DNA of 21,695 nt from Methanotrichaceae archaeon (GTDB taxonomy: Archaea > Halobacteriota > Methanosarcinia > Methanotrichales > Methanotrichaceae), in the NCBI GenBank assembly GCA_963813075.1, contig CAWEXU010000021.1, positions 1 to 21,695 on the forward strand, written 5' to 3'. The translations under genes were made by a program, and so were the position numbers. The notes under the pieces are model-generated. The model was given only the letters and a program-made list of their open reading frames with translations, made no database searches and was not told the origin of the DNA. This document shows positions 53 through 20,921 of this stretch, one piece after another (within the stretch, counting starts at the first letter, position 1; each line of letters opens with the position of its first letter).

Positions 53-2671
53 TCATACCCCGGTCATATAGAACGCGGCCCAGTAGAATGGATGTCGGAA
101 TCGCTCATCCTCTCGCAGCTCTCTTTGGGCCTCGGCCAGGGCCTGCACTGGCTGCTTGCCTTCCGTCCGCCAGAGCTGATAAAAGCGAGTCATGAGCATG
201 GCTGTGCTCTTTTCCGATACCGTCCAGAGTGAGCCGATAGCTCCAGCAAAGCCCGCTCGGATGAAAGCGGAAGGCAGCGATACCACCTCGTCCGGGACCC
301 GGGTTCCCGGCACTCCCGTCTCGCAGGCGGAGAGGGTGGCCAGACGGGCTCCCACCAGGTGTAGCTCGAAAAGATCCTTGATGGTCAGTACCTCGCCATT
401 GGCCATGATAAGGCCGCTATTCTCGGGATCACCCCAATTTGCCGCCCCGTGGCAGGAGAAGTGGGCCACCTGGGCTTCTGGTAGCGCCTCCAGGACTGCT
501 CTGCGGGTTGCTTTTTCTTGCTCCAGGATTTGGGGATCATGGAAGTGGCTGCTTATGGCCAGAACCTCATCATGGGAGTTGGGAAGAGGCGAGGGCTTGA
601 GCAGCCTGGGCTCGTCAATGGCCAGCAGCAGATCTGCACTTCTGGCATTGCGTCTGGCATGGGATAGGGCGCGGGCCGAGGGGATGTAGGATATGGGCTG
701 CAGGTCCTGGAAGTACTCCCTTTTGCCGCCCTCATCCCTCCAGGCAGCGTGCAGGGGCAGGAGGGCGAGCAGGCCGGTGGTAATCAGGAAGGCCTGATCT
801 GGCTTGAGCGATTGAAGAGCAGCATACACCGGCTCTGCCACCTCCTGCCAGAGTTCGCCTGTGACCGCCTCAATGGCATCAAACCACTTGCTTTGAGCTT
901 GAAGATATTCTCCCGCATCTATCTTATCCGCGATCAGCTTCTGCAGTGCCTCCTGCCAGCCGCCATAGGAATCGAACCAAGTCTTGAGATGCTCTTGCAG
1001 CCGCTCTTCCGAGAGGCCATCCATATCGACCGCCTGCACAGAGACATCACCACCAGATCGGCTGACGATCAGGGCCACTCCGCCCCCCGGAGCAGCCGCA
1101 ATATAGACCAGTGGCTGGCCTTCAACCACAGCAGTCGCGATCTCCTCCCACCCCGGCTCCGCGAGGAAGCTCTCATAGCCTGGGATGCGCCTGATGCGAT
1201 CTAGCGCTCTGTCCAGCCTGGACCGAGCCTGCATCATCAGATCGCGCAAGGGAGGCAAATCCTTGCCTTCGGCCAAGTCTCCTTTTCTCTCCTGAGATTC
1301 CAGGTTCTGCAGCTCTTCCACCGCCTGGCTGTAGAGCTCGTAGGCCCGGGAATCCACTTTCCGGACCTTCTCCAGGTCTGCCCGGTCCCTGGCCAGAGCG
1401 TCTCCCAGGCCCCGCGCCCGGCCCTGCTCCAGGGCCACTGCAGCGTTCTTCAATTTATTTGATTTTGCCAGAGCATATCCCGCTCGCCGGTAAAGGTTTC
1501 GCGTCTCTGCCAGCTCCGCCTCCCTGCTGGCTTGAAAGATAGAGGATCTGTAAAGCTCCTTTGCCGCCTCTATCCCTGTAAAGTAGGAATCTGCTGCTGG
1601 AGAGTAGCGCTGAACTTCCAGAAAGAGATTACCCAAACGATAAGCCGTCCGCCAGCAGCGGTTGGGAAATCCTTTTGGAGTGTAGATCATTAGGGCCAGG
1701 CTGTAGTGTTCGATCGCCTGCTCGATGTTCTCCGCCCTGTCGCCCCCCCGTATGCGTTCGCTGTAGGCATTGGCCAGGTTGTTCTGGGTCTCGGCCCGGT
1801 CCTGCGGGAAGTCCTCCTCGGTCCTGATCTTCAGTGCCAGGCTGCCGTGCTCGATTGCCTGCTCGATATTCTCCGCCCTGTCGCCCCGTATGCGTTCGCT
1901 GTAGGCATTGGCCAGGTTGTTCTGTGTCCCGGCCCAATTCTGCGGGAAGTCCTTCTCGGTGTAGATCTTCAGTGCCAGGCTGTAGTGCTCGATCGCCAGC
2001 TCGATGTTCTCCGCTCGATCGCCCCGTATGCGGTTGTTGTAGGCTAGGGCCAGGTTGTTCTGGGTCATGGCCCAATCCTGGGGGAAGTCCTTCTGGGTCC
2101 TGATCTTCAGTGCCAGGCTGTAGTGCTCGATCGCCAGCTCGATATTCTCCGCCCTGTTGCCTCGTATACGGCTCCAGTAAGCAGCGGCCAGGTCGTTCTG
2201 TGTCGCAGCCCAGTCCTGGGGGAAGTCCTTCTGGGTGTAGATCTTCAGTGCCAGGCAATAGTGCTCGATTGCCAGCTCGATGTTCTCCGCTCGATCGCCC
2301 CGTATGCGGTCGCTGTAGGCTATGGCCAGGTTGTTCTGTGTCATAGCCCACTTTTGCGGGAAGTCCTTCTGTGTGTAGATCTTCAGTGCCAGGCTGTAGT
2401 GCTCGATTGCCAGCTCGATGTTCTCCGCCCGGTTGCCCAGGGGAAACTGGGACAGGCTATTTGCCAGCTCATTCTGCAATTCTGCCCACAGCTCGGCATT
2501 CTGCTCGCGGGAGACCAGCTCTAAAGCCCTCTGGCACAGATCGATGCGCTTTGGCATATCCACCAGACGGGGTGGCCGGGAGAGCTCCTCCAGTATCTGG
2601 GAGAGTTCTATTCCCTCCTTGGATTTCTGCGTTGCAAGGGAAGACCTAAGACCCTTCTTTCTCCTTCCCAA
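53..2671 (-). CDS. TPR-repeat CHAT-domain (caspase-like, clan CD) cysteine protease
   Basis: 872-aa ORF with a TTG start preceded by GGAGG. Six 46-aa TPR-like repeats (ENIELAIEHY...FPQxWAxTQNNLAxAY). The C-terminal CHAT domain has the intact His motif HFSCHG and Cys motif LSACETG, plus LALLPLHAA, GSLWTV and a terminal HPFYWAAF. Confidence 0.93.
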   Translation of the reverse strand: MGRRKKGLRSSLATQKSKEGIELSQILEELSRPPRLVDMPKRIDLCQRALELVSREQNAELWAELQNELANSLSQFPLGNRAENIELAIEHYSLALKIYTQKDFPQKWAMTQNNLAIAYSDRIRGDRAENIELAIEHYCLALKIYTQKDFPQDWAATQNDLAAAYWSRIRGNRAENIELAIEHYSLALKIRTQKDFPQDWAMTQNNLALAYNNRIRGDRAENIELAIEHYSLALKIYTEKDFPQNWAGTQNNLANAYSERIRGDRAENIEQAIEHGSLALKIRTEEDFPQDRAETQNNLANAYSERIRGGDRAENIEQAIEHYSLALMIYTPKGFPNRCWRTAYRLGNLFLEVQRYSPAADSYFTGIEAAKELYRSSIFQASREAELAETRNLYRRAGYALAKSNKLKNAAVALEQGRARGLGDALARDRADLEKVRKVDSRAYELYSQAVEELQNLESQERKGDLAEGKDLPPLRDLMMQARSRLDRALDRIRRIPGYESFLAEPGWEEIATAVVEGQPLVYIAAAPGGGVALIVSRSGGDVSVQAVDMDGLSEERLQEHLKTWFDSYGGWQEALQKLIADKIDAGEYLQAQSKWFDAIEAVTGELWQEVAEPVYAALQSLKPDQAFLITTGLLALLPLHAAWRDEGGKREYFQDLQPISYIPSARALSHARRNARSADLLLAIDEPRLLKPSPLPNSHDEVLAISSHFHDPQILEQEKATRRAVLEALPEAQVAHFSCHGAANWGDPENSGLIMANGEVLTIKDLFELHLVGARLATLSACETGVPGTRVPDEVVSLPSAFIRAGFAGAIGSLWTVSEKSTAMLMTRFYQLWRTEGKQPVQALAEAQRELREDERFRHPFYWAAFYMTGV
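1664..2440 (-). repeat. 138-bp tandem repeat (6 copies) encoding 46-aa TPR-like units
   Basis: The anchor GAT(G/A)TTCTCCGC recurs at 2417, 2279, 2141, 2003, 1865 and 1724, giving spacings of 138, 138, 138, 138 and 141. Confidence 0.95.
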
Positions 2672-2675
2672 ATAT

Positions 2676-2738
2676 TCAACCTCCGCCCGCGTCTATTTTT
2701 GATGTATTCTGCACTATAAAAGTAATATTCCTGTTGCC
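2676..2738 (-). pseudogene. Detached native C-terminus of the 3-TM membrane protein gene
   Basis: After removing the IS and one TSD copy, the frame continues ...DSGAIS-GNRNITFIVQNTSKIDAGGG* with TGA at 2678-2676, 4 nt before the CHAT TTG. Confidence 0.8.
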
Positions 2739-2746
2739 TGAAATTG

Positions 2747-3920
2747 GGTCGTGAATCTGCAATCGGCTGTTATTTATATAACCTATTCATATATGCTACG
2801 TGGGGTGTAGCAAAATGGGCAAAAGAGGTCCAAAGCCTCGATTCTTAGATGTAGCATGTCCGAATGAGCAGTGCAGTCTATTTGGAATTGCTGGGAAAGG
2901 TAACGTCACTGTGTACGGAACCTACAAGATAAGCTCCGGTAAGGTCAGGAAATATGTTTGCCACACATGCGGCACCAGATTCTGCGATAGAACTAACACT
3001 GCATTCTATGACTCAAGAACAAACGAAGAAAAAATCAAGCTGGCTCTAAAAATGGCCATGCGTGGAATGAGCGTTTTAGGAATAGCTGAGATCGTTGAGT
3101 CAAAACCATCTACGGTAAGCACCTGGATCTCGAAAGCAGCAAAGCATAGCGAAAAAGTCAATGAAGTTGTCTTGAAGGATGTAGAGACTCCAAAGGTAGA
3201 GATGGACGAGGCATGGACTTTTGTGGGGAAAAAACACTACCCAGAGAAGGTGAATACGAAGACAAGGGAACCTGGATCTGGATAAGCATGGCCGCAAATT
3301 GTAGGTTAGTGCTTTCCCATGTTATCGGTGAGCGATCTCAGGAAAATGCAGATCAGCTCGTTTCAAATACCGCCAAAAGACTCAGATCAATGCCGCTCTT
3401 TGTGACGGATGGATTAAGACTATATGCAGCAGCTCTTCGAAAGCAATATGGAAAACTACAGCCATTCGCATCAACGGGCAAGCGAGGGCGACCTCGAAGT
3501 CCTAAATTAATCGTAGATGACCTATTAAAATATGCTCAAGTCATTAAAATGAGGATCGACGGCAGGCTAAAAAAAGTGGTCAAGAAAATCATATTTGGTA
3601 AAGATATAGACCACAAAATGATATCTACCAGCTACATTGAACGGCAAAACCTGACATGCAGACAAGATAATAACCGCATATCTAGGAAAACCATAGGTTT
3701 CTCTAAGGAGACTAAAGAATTGGATAACCAAATGACCCTATATTTCGCGCACTTCAACTACTGCCGAAAGCATCGCGCTCTAAAATATAGAAATGAGATG
3801 GGCATAACGAAGTTCAATAGTCCTGCGAAGCAAGCTGGCTTAATCGATCATGTCTGGAGCTTGCAGGAACTCTTGACTTTTCCATATTACAAAACTAAAA
3901 CCTATTAGGGGGTCACGACC
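2747..3920 (+). mobile_element. IS1-family insertion sequence, complete (1174 bp)
   Basis: Terminal inverted repeats GGTCGTGA (2747-2754) and TCACGACC (3913-3920). Flanking 8-bp direct repeat TGAAATTG at 2739-2746 and 3921-3928. Two overlapping transposase ORFs. Visibly more AT-rich than its flanks. Confidence 0.93.
2815..3908 (+). CDS. IS1-family transposase (InsA-like 2815-3285 plus InsB-like frame to 3908, joined by a probable -1 frameshift)
   Basis: ORF1 has a Zn ribbon (CPNEQC...CHTC), an HTH and EMDEAWTFVGKK. ORF2, in the -1 frame, has WIWISM, FVTDG and TSYIERQN, the DDE remainder. A slippery GGGG-AAAAAA-C lies at 3225-3235 in the overlap. Confidence 0.88.
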
Positions 3921-4478
3921 TGAAATTGCACCTGAGTCTTTTTCTATAGCATATGCCAATATAAGGCCGGACAGATTCTTTGATTTGCCGATATCATCCC
4001 CGACTATCACCAAATGCACTGTCTCTTCATCAGACTTCGCATCCTCTACCGGCCCAGTCCCCAGCCAGAGGATGGAGATCGATGTTGCAGCGAGAGCTAT
4101 AACGAAGAGGACCGAGCCGATCTTGAGCCGGTGTCTCTTATTTCGGCTGACATCCATGGTGACAATTGCGATATCGCTGGGACTCCGGGCATTGAACCGC
4201 AGGCGGTTAGGGAAATAGACCCAGGCAAGAGAGCTTATGCACAACAGCCAGAGGACGATGGGAGTGCAGATTACCACCCAGTCGAGCAGATCCGACGCCC
4301 TCTCATTGAACTTGAAGAGGGCCAGGGCTCCAGCATAAACGGTGAGTAGAGATGAGCCCAGGGTCAGAAAGGATTTGGCCGCTTCATCCAGGACATTGGG
4401 CGACTCCTGAATCATCTGTCGGCCGTACTTAAGCCACTCTATGTCCTCCTCATAGGGCTCCTGCCCAACGATTGGCAT
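3921..4478 (-). pseudogene. 3-TM membrane protein (PycTM-like), N-terminal 186 codons, interrupted by the IS
   Basis: ATG lies 1 nt after the upstream stop. Three hydrophobic helices at about aa 37-56, 64-88 and 120-140. The frame now reads into the IS antisense strand, adding a 26-aa foreign tail that ends at 3840. Confidence 0.8.
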
Positions 4479-4479
4479 A

Positions 4480-4653
4480 TCATCCCTCTGAATGGGGTAT
4501 TACTATTCGGTTGGCATAGCTGCAATGCGGGCATCTCTCGATGATCACCATCTGGCCTGGGGACTTGAAGGCCTCACCATCATCTCCATCCGTCTCGCAG
4601 ACAAACTCTCGCCCGCACTTCTCGTTCTTGCAGATAACCCAAATCCTTGCCAC
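4480..4653 (-). CDS. Small Zn-ribbon protein (57 aa; CKNEKC...CPHC)
   Basis: GTG at 4653 follows a strong GAGGAGG RBS. Two Cys pairs flank an acidic loop. The stop is 1 nt before the next ATG (GGA TGA T ATG). The longer 130-aa ORF in the track is probably an over-extension. Confidence 0.75.
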   Translation of the reverse strand: MARIWVICKNEKCGREFVCETDGDDGEAFKSPGQMVIIERCPHCSYANRIVIPHSEG

Positions 4654-4812
4654 TTGCCAACCCTCCTCTTGTCTGATCACAGCATTTAATCCTGAACTGA
4701 TCAGCATTTCGGTTGAGGAGATCTGAGGGCAAAATTGCAAATATGACAGAATCACTGCAATATTATGGCTCTTCGCTGAATTATGTGGGTGGGCACAGCA
4801 GAGATTATAGCC

Positions 4813-4882
4813 TCTGTTCCTCTGTGTCTCTGTGGTTGGGTCAGAGCATAGCGGTTCACCACATAGGCACAAAAGACACAGA
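4813..4882. repeat. Imperfect inverted repeat (REP-like, ACCACAGAGACACAGAG-type arms)
   Basis: Arm 1 TCTGTTCCTCTGTGTCTCTGTGGT (4813-4836) pairs with arm 2 ACCACATAGGCACAAAAGACACAGA (4858-4882). The inner 16 bp match at 13 positions, with a 21-nt spacer. Confidence 0.5.
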
Positions 4883-4924
4883 AAATTTCCGATTCAAGTC
4901 CACTCATGCTAAATAGCGAGGAGC

Positions 4925-4960
4925 CAAAAAAGAAAAATCTGCGGCCGCAATGGCCGCATT
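4925..4960 (-). terminator. Hairpin plus U-tract terminator of the LTD gene
   Basis: On the minus strand TGCGGCC-ATTGC-GGCCGCA is followed by GATTTTTCTTTTTT, just after the stop at 4966. Confidence 0.7.
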
Positions 4961-4965
4961 AAGCT

Positions 4966-5769
4966 CTAGTACTGAATCCTATCCTTCCAGGGATCGACAT
5001 ATTCAGTTGCTACCTCTGCTGCAGCAGTGGTGACATCATAGCTGGTTAAGGTATTTCCCGCAGCATCCTTTAAGGTAACGATATTATCGATCCAGAGGGG
5101 CTCAATGCTGTTGGTATAGATATCGGTGGCAGTTCCGGCGCCCATTCCCTCATGAACCTTGATCGATGTGCTAGCATTCAGGACCAGTTCGGGGAAGACG
5201 AAGGTGGCAACTCCTGCAGACTCCAGCGTCCAGCCGGTCATATCCCACTCGCCAATGGCCTCATTGGTCACCTGGACGTACTTATCCTCAGCAGTATTAA
5301 CTACATTGGTGATGGTTACCTTCACCGAAGGAGCCGGGATTCCAGAATCGCGGCTGAATACGGCAGCCCGATCTGCGGATGTGGCCACATCAGAATAGCC
5401 TTCCGGAAGAGCTTTACCCAGAACCAGGGAGGTGCCCGCGGTGTAATTGGAGAGCTGCTTAAACCTTGATGCAGTCTCCTCAACGACAGCGACCTCTTCC
5501 GCGGGTGTCTCGTTCATTGGGGTCTCGTTCGCTGGGGTCTCAACTACTGGAACCTCTTCTACAGGGGCCTCTGTGACATTAATTGTCTCTATTGCAGCAG
5601 TTGCATTGGTGACGGCTGTCATATTTGTGACATTGGTGGCGTTCGTGAGATTGGTGAGATTGGTGATGTTCATATCTGCGAGGGCAGCGATATCTACGTC
5701 CTGGGCAAAAACCAGCCCAACGGAGAAGGCTACCATCATGGATAGAATCAACATTCCTGTACACTTCAT
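4966..5769 (-). CDS. Secreted lamin-tail-domain (LTD) glycoprotein
   Basis: Signal peptide, then an N-x-T-rich and E/P/T-rich stalk. The C-terminal LTD-like domain has YVQVTN...DMTGWTL...FVFP...IKVH...LW...VTLKDAAG. The ATG at 5769 fits GAGGT RBS spacing; 5775 is an alternative start. Confidence 0.8.
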   Translation of the reverse strand: MKCTGMLILSMMVAFSVGLVFAQDVDIAALADMNITNLTNLTNATNVTNMTAVTNATAAIETINVTEAPVEEVPVVETPANETPMNETPAEEVAVVEETASRFKQLSNYTAGTSLVLGKALPEGYSDVATSADRAAVFSRDSGIPAPSVKVTITNVVNTAEDKYVQVTNEAIGEWDMTGWTLESAGVATFVFPELVLNASTSIKVHEGMGAGTATDIYTNSIEPLWIDNIVTLKDAAGNTLTSYDVTTAAAEVATEYVDPWKDRIQY

Positions 5770-5966: not shown

Positions 5967-6194
5967 TTACTCTTCAGCGGTCTCAGTAACAGTAACGTTT
6001 TCGGCTTCGATAGTCACATTGGTTATGTTTGTCATGTTGGTAACGTTGGTCATATTAGTTACATTGGTCATGTTTGTGGATTCGTTCTCGCTGGCATTAA
6101 GGGTCTCATCCATTACTTCCTCGCTCAAGGCAGCTCCAATTGATAGAGCCATCAAGAGAGAGAAGAGTACCAATCCGCTTGATATTTTGCTCAT
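5967..6194 (-). CDS. Small secreted acidic protein with tandem N-x-T sequons
   Basis: 75 aa with a signal peptide and a GGAG RBS, containing NESTNMTNVTNMTNVTNMTNITNVT. Confidence 0.75.
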   Translation of the reverse strand: MSKISSGLVLFSLLMALSIGAALSEEVMDETLNASENESTNMTNVTNMTNVTNMTNITNVTIEAENVTVTETAEE

Positions 6195-19505: not shown

Positions 19506-20921
19506 GTGAAGCATGCTTTAACTATTATCCTGGTTGGATTGGTTTTGATCTTTTGCACTCCCCTGAAGGCTCTTGGCGAATCGGAGACTGTGGTAGCAGC
19601 CGATGATATAATGATCAAAATGAGGCTGGGCTTGCCAGTGGAGTACGAAAATACGGTCATAAAAGGAAACCTTACATCTGACCGGCTGGGTATGACTGCC
19701 AAGCAGATCTTGCGCATCCCCTTTGAGGTGAAGATGCCGCAATCCAAGCAGATGCAGGTCAATTCATCTGTCGTGATCAAAAATTCCATTATATGCGGCA
19801 GAGTGGACTTTAACAACACACAATTTCATAAGCAGGTCAGCTTCGAGAATGTGTTTTTTGTCGAAAATGCATTATTTGTAAACTCAACTTTCAATGACGA
19901 TGCTGCATTTAATCATTCTATATTTTTAAAAGAAGGAAGCTTCGAAGGATCAAGGTTTGACGGCAAGGCGAATTTCTTCCAAACCCGTTTCAGCCGGCCG
20001 GCATCATTTAATGCCGCCAAATTTGGCGGCATTGCTGATTTCTCCCTCGCCCAGTTCCTCTCAGTTGGCAATTTCGCCTCCAGCCAATTCTCATCTGATG
20101 CCCTCTTTGATAAAACAGATTTTAAAGGAGAAGCCAAATTCATAGCATCTCAGTTCAATCAGGATGTGGAATTCAATGGAACCAGATTCGAAAAAGAGAC
20201 CTCATTTGAGGGTGCAAAATTCTCCGGGTCTGCTCAATTTTCTGAATCTGTATTCAACGAATCTATAGCCCTCAATTCAGTGCAGTTTGAAAAGGAGGTT
20301 CGATTTGATCGGACTCAATTCGAGGGTCCGGCATTCTTCGCAAGGGCCAGGTTTGATGATCTAGTCGAGTTCGGCGACTGTAATTTCCTTAAAAACGCCA
20401 CCTTCAAAGAATCCGATTTCCAGGTTGATGCCACATTCAATAATACATCTTTTCTTGAACCAGCAGAATTCAGCGGAAGCAATTTCCTTGGATTTGCCGA
20501 TTTTGGAGGTTCGAAGTTTGCATATGATGCTGATTTCAGCGATTCCATCTTCAGCGGTCCGGCCGACTTCAGCAGAACTGCGTTCAGCGATAGAGTCAAT
20601 TTCTATAATACACAGTTTAAAAAGAATGTCCATTTCGAGAGCACCCAGATTAATACCATCAATTTAACTGGAGCTGGATATGATTGGCTCTATTTAAAAT
20701 GGGATTGCATAAGTCATCTTGAGTTCGATGATGCTGCTTACCAAGACCTCATTAACAATTATAAGAGACTTCAATGGCTGACGGATTCATCGGATTGCAG
20801 TTCCACTTACCTGAAAGAGATAATCAAGGTTGCGCCAGACGATAGCCATAAATGGATCATAGATGGCATATTATCGATGGTTGCAGGCACAAATTCAAGC
20901 AACTCCTCCCACAAAGGATGA
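19506..20921 (+). CDS. Secreted pentapeptide-like (11-residue FxxxxFxxxxx) repeat protein
   Basis: GTG start after GGAAGGAG, a signal peptide, and about 25 consecutive 11-aa repeats. Confidence 0.85.
   Translation: MKHALTIILVGLVLIFCTPLKALGESETVVAADDIMIKMRLGLPVEYENTVIKGNLTSDRLGMTAKQILRIPFEVKMPQSKQMQVNSSVVIKNSIICGRVDFNNTQFHKQVSFENVFFVENALFVNSTFNDDAAFNHSIFLKEGSFEGSRFDGKANFFQTRFSRPASFNAAKFGGIADFSLAQFLSVGNFASSQFSSDALFDKTDFKGEAKFIASQFNQDVEFNGTRFEKETSFEGAKFSGSAQFSESVFNESIALNSVQFEKEVRFDRTQFEGPAFFARARFDDLVEFGDCNFLKNATFKESDFQVDATFNNTSFLEPAEFSGSNFLGFADFGGSKFAYDADFSDSIFSGPADFSRTAFSDRVNFYNTQFKKNVHFESTQINTINLTGAGYDWLYLKWDCISHLEFDDAAYQDLINNYKRLQWLTDSSDCSSTYLKEIIKVAPDDSHKWIIDGILSMVAGTNSSNSSHKG

Follow-up and report, generated by a model that had tools for sequence, protein, structure and literature searches.

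Gasdermins are cut by CHAT proteases encoded beside them, as set out in the available part of Johnson et al. (10.1101/2021.06.07.447441), and CATRA has been named as a conflict system that joins caspase and TPR components (PMC8195603, accessible portion). According to the portion available of 10.1101/2020.01.06.895854, Methanosarcina abounds in NLR-like (NOD-like receptor-like) proteins, which are linked there to a multicellular habit. The window considered here, a stretch of 21,695 nucleotides that constitutes contig C21 (CAWEXU010000021.1) of an 83%-complete Methanotrichaceae genome, holds three minus-strand open reading frames (ORFs), encoding a zinc-ribbon protein, a membrane protein with three hydrophobic helices (3TM) and a caspase-like TPR-CHAT protease, close homologs of which carry the name Methanothrix. 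The module is real, conserved and linked to proteases, and apparently undescribed. With the cutting of gasdermins by adjacent CHAT proteases as precedent, the zinc-ribbon and 3TM pair found beside caspase-fold sensor proteases is read tentatively, at a little under an even chance, as a protease-gated membrane effector which would follow gasdermin-like logic with new parts.

The zinc-ribbon gene (4653-4480, minus strand; 57 aa, GTG start, CxxxxC...CxxC) lies 1 nt from the start of the 3TM gene at 4478, which is interrupted by an insertion sequence (IS). Excision of the IS in silico gives a 206-aa ORF ending at 2676, with a gap of 4 nt to the TTG start of the protease gene at 2671, and a GGAGG within the last codons of the 3TM gene serves, to judge from its position, as the ribosome-binding site of the protease gene. 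The original prediction had claimed this packed layout, a ribosome-binding site inside the membrane gene, a 206-aa IS-free product and a protease that keeps both catalytic motifs, and all of these were reproduced, the reconstruction being backed by a database protein of 206 aa (P0001, with 97% identity across the 186 residues used for the search) and by locus L020, an empty site without the IS. Contigs from RNA libraries of relatives span the zinc-ribbon and 3TM genes in one piece, together with parts of the protease gene, though as assembled pieces they cannot show co-transcription. A scan of the locus for promoters and terminators gave signal at chance level, and no Rfam match was found at 4600-5000.

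The insertion inside the membrane gene is a 1174-bp element of the IS1 family (2747-3920, plus strand), assigned by a PF03400 match over the cut-off, inverted terminal repeats of 8 bp (GGTCGTGA) and an 8-bp target duplication at 2739-2746 and 3921-3928. Its transposase ORFs (2800/2815-3285 and 3213-3908) are transcribed against the direction of the operon, each matching NF033558 below the whole-protein cut-off. Both junctions are bridged by contigs of other studies (left X5, right X9), and four DNA runs held no read evidence for excision. The element enters at codon 186, leaving codons 1-186 at 3921-4478 (minus strand) and a detached 3' end at 2676-2746 (minus strand) which holds the last 20 codons, one target-site copy and the GGAGG; the interrupted frame still extends to 212 aa (3840-4478) with an IS-derived tail. 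Residues 187-206 alone are replaced, the least conserved part of the protein (column conservation 0.33 vs 0.78 for residues 1-145). The IS does not destroy the 3TM gene, and all three core products remain. Because just these 20 least conserved residues are removed, the damage is probably polar, bearing on the downstream protease and uncoupling it from the operon transcript.

The association of these genes recurs far beyond the contig. Among 28 loci of close homologs, some of them near-duplicates, the zinc-ribbon gene lies upstream in all 28 and a TPR gene downstream in 23, the other 5 being at contig ends. A broad 3TM profile, which collects 453 representatives at E<=0.001, has matches in 90 of 392 genomes of the class, across five families, and in some other classes of the phylum. 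In a set of 71 loci, composed of 11 loci of an earlier set and 60 of the strongest of 123 profile-match rows, a zinc-ribbon motif stands directly upstream of the 3TM gene at 60, and a same-strand CHAT gene occurs within 5.5 kb at 42, 15 more loci being cut by contig ends. Counted from the protease side, the 392 genomes of the class hold ~264 CHAT matches, and for 44 of the 150 best of these a 3TM match lies no more than 5.5 kb away. The linked CHAT proteins form four clades with 21-38% identity between and 64-74% within them, and most are CHAT-STAND(NB-ARC-like)-TPR proteins encoded upstream of the pair, not TPR-CHAT proteins. Three gene orders occur, with gaps of 1-10 nt or overlaps between genes; zinc ribbon and 3TM are fused in 12 of 144 representative hits; and in a quick-search 3TM tree, in which long branches are flagged, the clades (A, that of the window, and B1, B2 and B3) match the zinc-ribbon type and the protease type. 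Weak phylum-level 3TM matches (E 1e-7 to 1e-12; L162, L164-L172, L174) were rejected as unrelated membrane proteins with neither zinc-ribbon nor CHAT neighbours, and were left out of the 71-locus count.

Since several protease clades, fusions and gene orders are found, the zinc-ribbon and 3TM pair is the constant unit and the sensor protease is exchanged. The expectation that homologs of the small genes would co-occur with CHAT genes is borne out by tight linkage that reaches beyond the genus and takes in several protease clades. The idea of a three-gene unit with a TPR-CHAT partner, in comparison, holds in part: the CHAT linkage is real elsewhere and TPR-CHAT is the partner at this locus, but the set of three is not the constant unit, and the commonest partner in relatives is an NLR-like CHAT-STAND-TPR protein. 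Co-mobility could also make neighbours of three genes that have no functional link, and the pair is indeed found without a protease, as in the paralogous pair on contig C26 of this genome, which has no CHAT gene. This explanation is nevertheless very improbable, being largely refuted by the linkage in the 71 loci and by the 3TM tree: closely spaced adjacency to a protease recurs in three gene orders, with a clostripain as well as four CHAT clades, and chance adjacency is put below 1%, an estimate from ~264 CHAT matches in 392 genomes.

The protease gene (53-2671, minus strand, TTG start) encodes 872 residues, of which 604-871 form a CHAT domain (PF12770, E=1.5e-59, 202 bits vs a cut-off of 24); a match to Csx29 (E=3e-14) is far below its cut-off. 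The catalytic dyad consists of His741 (nt 449-451) in HFSCHG and Cys783 (nt 323-325) in LSACET, and the dyad motifs are intact in 45 of 47 linked CHAT proteins. The domain is preceded by TPR-like repeats of 46 aa, encoded by an array of 138-nt units at 1665-2438 (minus strand) that are 81-91% identical when compared at the DNA level. Of 9 homolog genes examined, one is split, and the other 8 have between 3 and 14 repeat motifs. Repeat positions 4, 14 and 15 are hypervariable, with 61-68 non-synonymous vs 2-9 synonymous codon differences in 87 within-gene pairs, a pattern as expected of a putative ligand-binding surface. Separately, clade B1 proteases (L049, L053, L056, L098) carry a CxxC...CxxC zinc-finger insertion directly after the catalytic His motif and have no second acid of the kind discussed below for the S1 pocket. 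Orphan CHAT C-terminal fragments recur beside a gene for an acylphosphatase-like coiled-coil protein (C9:76952-78528, C4:9241-9660; L025, L026, L028, L046), suggesting recombination that shuffles the protease end.

The zinc ribbon (4480-4653, minus strand; C8, C13, C41, C44) is modelled by AlphaFold2 as an all-beta zinc ribbon with a mean predicted local distance difference test score (pLDDT) of 80, and between its Cys pairs lies a low-confidence loop with a short strand at residues 28-31. A fold search with this model gave no significant match, the best being Cren7 (Z 4.7), followed by other zinc ribbons. In this loop, E27-A28-F29-K30-S31 (4561-4575, minus strand) is a candidate protease site with K30 at P1. 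When clades are defined from the 3TM tree and not from the motif itself, a single basic residue that follows hydrophobic ones is conserved in each protease-linked zinc-ribbon type. In clade A, E-x-[FY]-[KR] is present in 20/20 distinct zinc-ribbon sequences while the flanking loop is variable; clade B2 has a [DEN][GS]-x5-[RK] loop motif in 30/31, clade B3 has IY[KR] in 5/5 and clade B1 has a tail [VIL][TVIL]R in 16/16. The sole B2 exception, L136, adjoins a protease with a broken His-Gly motif, which counts in favour of a protease site. Two further loci, L059 (1044-2337) and L090 (7023-8337), have two tandem zinc-ribbon genes before 3TM; neither has a protease in the vicinity or a clear basic motif in the loop.

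The motif of the window clade resembles the separase site consensus, given as (S/D/E)xExxR in the available text of PMC11506125. A model of separase (PMC4626109 section 9) anchors P1-Arg on two acids, a Glu that follows the first strand and an Asp with which helix 4 begins, and by motif spacing these anchor acids correspond to Glu702 and Glu820 in the window protease, separase Asp1082 being the second. An Asp or Glu at this second presumed S1 position is found in 8/8 clade A and 22/23 clade B2 proteases. These proteases are compared with separase at the level of motifs, and from their sequences an Arg/Lys specificity may be predicted, along with cleavage of the zinc ribbon.

The 3TM protein is modelled with three long helices (residues 10-54, 64-88 and 100-140), at a mean pLDDT of 63.5 that falls under 50 for residues 145-206; a strongly amphipathic stretch at ~13-35 precedes hydrophobic helices at ~36-55, 64-88 and 119-140. 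The tail is variable, with an N-x-S/T sequon at 168-170 kept in 46/50 homologs, and this conserved sequon fits a predicted N-in/C-out topology in which the tail would be extracellular. Pfam, NCBIfam and PADLOC hold no assignment for the family. Similarity to the PADLOC PycTM profile is weak (16/109 members at E<=0.01, best 4e-6), as is that to 8xMP (6/109 members); Pfam PF18967 is matched by 4/109 at E<=0.05 (best 4.9e-5, bit scores not shown), and clusters with a PycTM name are among the nearest in the Atlas, PF18967 being present in 11-21% of the members of Atlas clusters. By sequence, 3TM would be an undescribed family that is remotely PycTM-like. Foldseek returned no significant match for the model (best E=0.1, NINJ1), a wide fold search gave generic helical bundles only (best Z 10.6), and a PDB sequence search with the broad profile found nothing below E=0.1. 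The family has bacterial-looking homologs as well. Relatives were found neither in viral contigs nor in plasmids (three queries; look-ups drew on P0217, P0246, P0248 and P0255). Longer homologs of 306-338 aa (P0155, P0168, P0175 type) occur at L141 and L144 with a second profile match and no upstream zinc ribbon, the one at L144 adjoining an AAA ATPase gene.

The conserved charges of 3TM raise the question of which partner is cut. R20, K35, R92, K114 and R117 are nearly invariant and lie in predicted cytoplasmic parts, so that the protease might cut 3TM directly in the manner of gasdermins, at the amphipathic helix or a cytoplasmic loop, with the zinc ribbon as chaperone or adaptor; in the zinc-ribbon/3TM fusions a cut between the domains would be equivalent. 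This alternative is distinctly unlikely, since these residues are placed in predicted helices and agree with the positive-inside rule, while the zinc-ribbon motif is modelled in an exposed extended strand and changes with the protease clade.

The protease-gated effector can be laid out in five steps. A ligand, probably viral or non-self, would be sensed by the TPR array with its variable repeats or, in most relatives, by a STAND-TPR module. This would switch on the His741/Cys783 dyad, which is present in the sequence and for which activation is supposed by analogy with Csx29. The protease would then cut the zinc ribbon after Lys30, within the exposed E-x-[FY]-[KR]|S, a conserved site with predicted cleavage. 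The cut zinc ribbon would no longer restrain 3TM, a presumed binding in keeping with the adjacency and fusion of the two genes. Finally, the protein of amphipathic helix and three transmembrane helices would oligomerise and depolarise or rupture the membrane, at the cost of a single cell within a filament or aggregate. The module is also presumed to have an antiviral role. A bolder version, less likely than not, is an inflammasome-like death pathway in methanogenic archaea with a non-gasdermin executioner: NLR-like CHAT-STAND-TPR or TPR-CHAT sensors would cut a zinc "safety pin" at a separase-type Arg/Lys site and free a 3TM protein that would rupture the membrane in a PycTM- or NINJ1-like way. 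The portable cassette would be shared by at least five caspase-fold lineages, and nearly one in three of the strongest CHAT genes of the class (the 44 of 150 listed matches above) would make use of it.

The agreement of the zinc-ribbon type with the protease clade can be read in another way, with the zinc ribbon serving the protease as a docking adaptor or acting on it as a substrate-like inhibitor, similar to securin or PCi, and 3TM tethering the complex or sensing envelope damage while the targets lie elsewhere. Canonical protease inhibitors stay bound after cleavage, and a zinc-clasped loop could likewise remain bound once cut. PCi, moreover, is both cleaved by and inhibits PCaspase, according to the accessible part of 10.1101/2023.06.23.546230. 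An inhibitor would not be expected to last where no protease is encoded close by, as zinc-ribbon/3TM pairs and fusions do (L090, L091, L095, L097, L138), and 3TM is missing from the vicinity of ~70% of the listed CHAT matches, so this possibility is judged unlikely.

Several points weigh against a protease-gated effector. The match between protease and substrate across clades is, as far as the sequences go, not clean: the second acid is found in 0/14 clade B1 proteases, though the B1 zinc ribbon keeps its tail Arg, and at L122 the Arg is kept beside a protease killed by a Cys-to-Tyr change. The equivalence with separase residues is one of motif spacing and not of structural superposition. CHAT specificity varies, with Craspases cutting at Met or Leu and the Runella enzyme at Leu (available parts of PMC11506125 and 10.1101/2021.06.07.447441), for which reason a preference for Arg/Lys is put forward only as a prediction; R92, K114 and R117 of 3TM could be the target instead. 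The similarity to PycTM is below the cut-off and the fold is matched by generic helical bundles only. At 14 of the 71 loci there is no same-strand CHAT nearby, the fused forms L095 and L097 among them. Within these 14, L058 has an adjacent clostripain, L126 has two CHAT-STAND genes on the other strand and L133 follows a truncated remnant of a CHAT-STAND gene, and L149 has ATPase and TPR genes before the pair with no detected CHAT. Related genomes are not independent, and weight is therefore put on the number of distinct partnerships and no p-value is given. The enrichment near defence islands foreseen by the original prediction was not seen among 133 flanking proteins of 38 loci, whose PADLOC matches were generic apart from the three named below, in a comparison with no control set. 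As an observation on its own, a 3TM fragment separates two tandem CHAT-STAND-TPR genes at L126 (6795-16803), and a complete zinc-ribbon/3TM pair on the opposite strand faces them.

The genomic surroundings bear on whether the module has to do with immunity at all. A signalling or developmental switch outside immunity, engaged in envelope stress or in remodelling of filaments or aggregates, would agree with flanks that are mostly housekeeping genes without a defence-island signal, and with the sequon in the predicted outer tail of window-type 3TM, which suggests a surface role. The CHAT protein HetF has a regulatory role. The same is reported of the CHAT protein DdvA in the part available of PMC11506125. 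Of the 133 flanking proteins, only three are plausible defence neighbours: a fragment of a type I methyltransferase and two toxin-antitoxin genes of the nucleotidyltransferase type. A HetF- or DdvA-like switch is rather unlikely all the same. The cassette is patchy (the 90 of 392 genomes), occupies many insertion sites and suffers frequent frameshifts and IS hits, and this patchiness and decay, together with repeat-number and site-specific repeat variation and the NLR-like partners, fit a conflict system; the mapped loci showed neither a sigma factor nor a regulator next to them.

The protease-gated effector is of interest for the question of what archaeal caspase-like proteases cut, and 44 of the best 150 CHAT matches in the class are paired with one two-gene cassette. 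A scissile bond that can be named, the candidate Lys30 in E-A-F-K|S, and a C783A dead enzyme reduce the substrate question to a simple in vitro test. If correct, the proposal would provide a protease-gated membrane effector other than gasdermin and a compact protease-controlled kill switch, and would extend NLR-caspase cell-death logic to methanogens that grow as filaments or aggregates and power anaerobic digestion.

Other copies of these genes are found in the same genome. A second zinc-ribbon/3TM/TPR-CHAT copy with many frameshifts (C10:1-4434) lies downstream of a glutamyl-tRNA synthetase gene, which is the commonest cassette site in relatives (L031, L038, L043, L057, L092, L093). A block of cobyrinate-synthase and lamin-tail-domain genes is present three times (C21, C26:8000-12100 and C4:9200-14000), followed by the full cassette with the IS on C21, by the zinc-ribbon and 3TM genes only on C26 and by a CHAT C-terminal fragment only on C4; the triple block may represent either a strain mixture or a site of recurrent insertion and decay. 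Just upstream of the zinc-ribbon gene in the window, a non-coding repeat of ~170 bp with hairpin potential (4760-4930) has seven matches in the genome, very high summed contig depth in DNA and RNA-library runs and no Rfam match, and is possibly a miniature inverted-repeat transposable element or a repetitive extragenic palindromic-like element of Methanothrix. Beyond it are encoded a secreted lamin-tail-domain protein (PF00932; 4966-5775) and a small secreted protein (5967-6194), both rich in N-x-T repeats and likely, from these repeats, to be heavily N-glycosylated surface proteins. A 471-aa secreted protein of pentapeptide-like repeats, recognised by inspection, is encoded at 19506-20921.

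The gene combination had been predicted not to be a named system, and searches of full-text literature, which did not extend to supplements (e.g. the gene-neighbourhood data of Kaur et al. 2020) or the CATRA paper, where a listing is possible, agree with this in finding no description of it. The parts available of PMC8195603, PMC13069673 and PMC13581612 do not describe the module. PADLOC gave no significant match to a system component, the window proteins reaching E=0.014-0.066 at best. CATRA comprises CATRA-N/CATRA-C and CATASP domains, and in a comparison limited to these components the three window proteins have no Pfam hit to any of them. With the Pycsar effector PycTM (PF18967), 3TM shares weak profile similarity and a small membrane build of three helices, but it is coupled to proteases and a zinc ribbon and not to a nucleotide signal. 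Neither the window protein nor P0001 has a PF18967 hit at all, and among 48 members scanned with scores the one hit reached 17.7 bits, under the gathering score of 27.2; the fold-search rows listed hold only generic bundles and no PycTM structure, and no PycC cyclase turned up either in the gene maps or among the 133 proteins that flank 38 loci. Pycsar was rejected on account of the sub-threshold PycTM similarity and the missing cyclase.

Type III-E Craspase (Csx29/Csx30) resembles the locus in its TPR-CHAT architecture and supplies the closest solved structures by sequence (E ~6e-8). Csx29 differs, however, in having Ser at the presumed S1 acid of the window enzyme and in cutting after Met or Leu (PMC11506125, available part). 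The window protease scores 52.8 bits against a cut-off of 300 for NF041237, and no cas genes were recognised among the window ORFs by inspection or in the flanks, where a Cas12f-type match looks like a TnpB fragment; Craspase was rejected on the score below the cut-off and on finding no CRISPR effector and no sigma factor. The EACC1-caspase system of multicellular prokaryotes, as far as covered by the accessible text of Kaur et al. 2020 (PMC7159879), similarly sets a membrane gene beside a caspase-STAND-repeat fusion, but EACC1 has a single transmembrane helix and no zinc-ribbon partner there. No EACC1 match is present among the Pfam families listed for 3TM (25 of 62), and this system was rejected since three helices are found instead of one.

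Two likenesses come from eukaryotes. Separase (PMC4626109 section 9 and PMC11506125, in the parts available) shares the CHAT-clan fold, with an E-x-x-[KR] in the zinc-ribbon loop and acids at both presumed S1 positions on the archaeal side, but it is a eukaryotic cohesin protease and the likeness is a motif-level analogy for which no profile match was obtained. NINJ1, a membrane-rupture protein, heads the Foldseek rows for the 3TM model and likewise has an amphipathic helix followed by transmembrane helices; at E=0.1 and a TM-score of 0.29/0.47 the match is not significant, and with NINJ2 at rank 49 (Z 7.8) in the wide search it is a lead only. Gasdermin-CHAT/C14 operons (Johnson et al., 10.1101/2021.06.07.447441) have no gasdermin counterpart here, as neither 3TM nor the other window proteins match gasdermin in Pfam, NCBIfam or PADLOC, and a gasdermin-protease system was rejected for want of a gasdermin-domain effector. 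Another hallmark of such systems, a caspase-like protease that is encoded alongside and bears a repeat or NTPase sensor, is present at the locus. Its partner is modelled as an all-helical 3TM with a separate or fused zinc ribbon, the predicted cut is at Lys/Arg and not Leu, and the setting is archaeal; in common with the gasdermin operons, as described in the available part of that work, a sensor protease of TPR or NACHT type stands beside a membrane-acting partner, and the protease can be exchanged.

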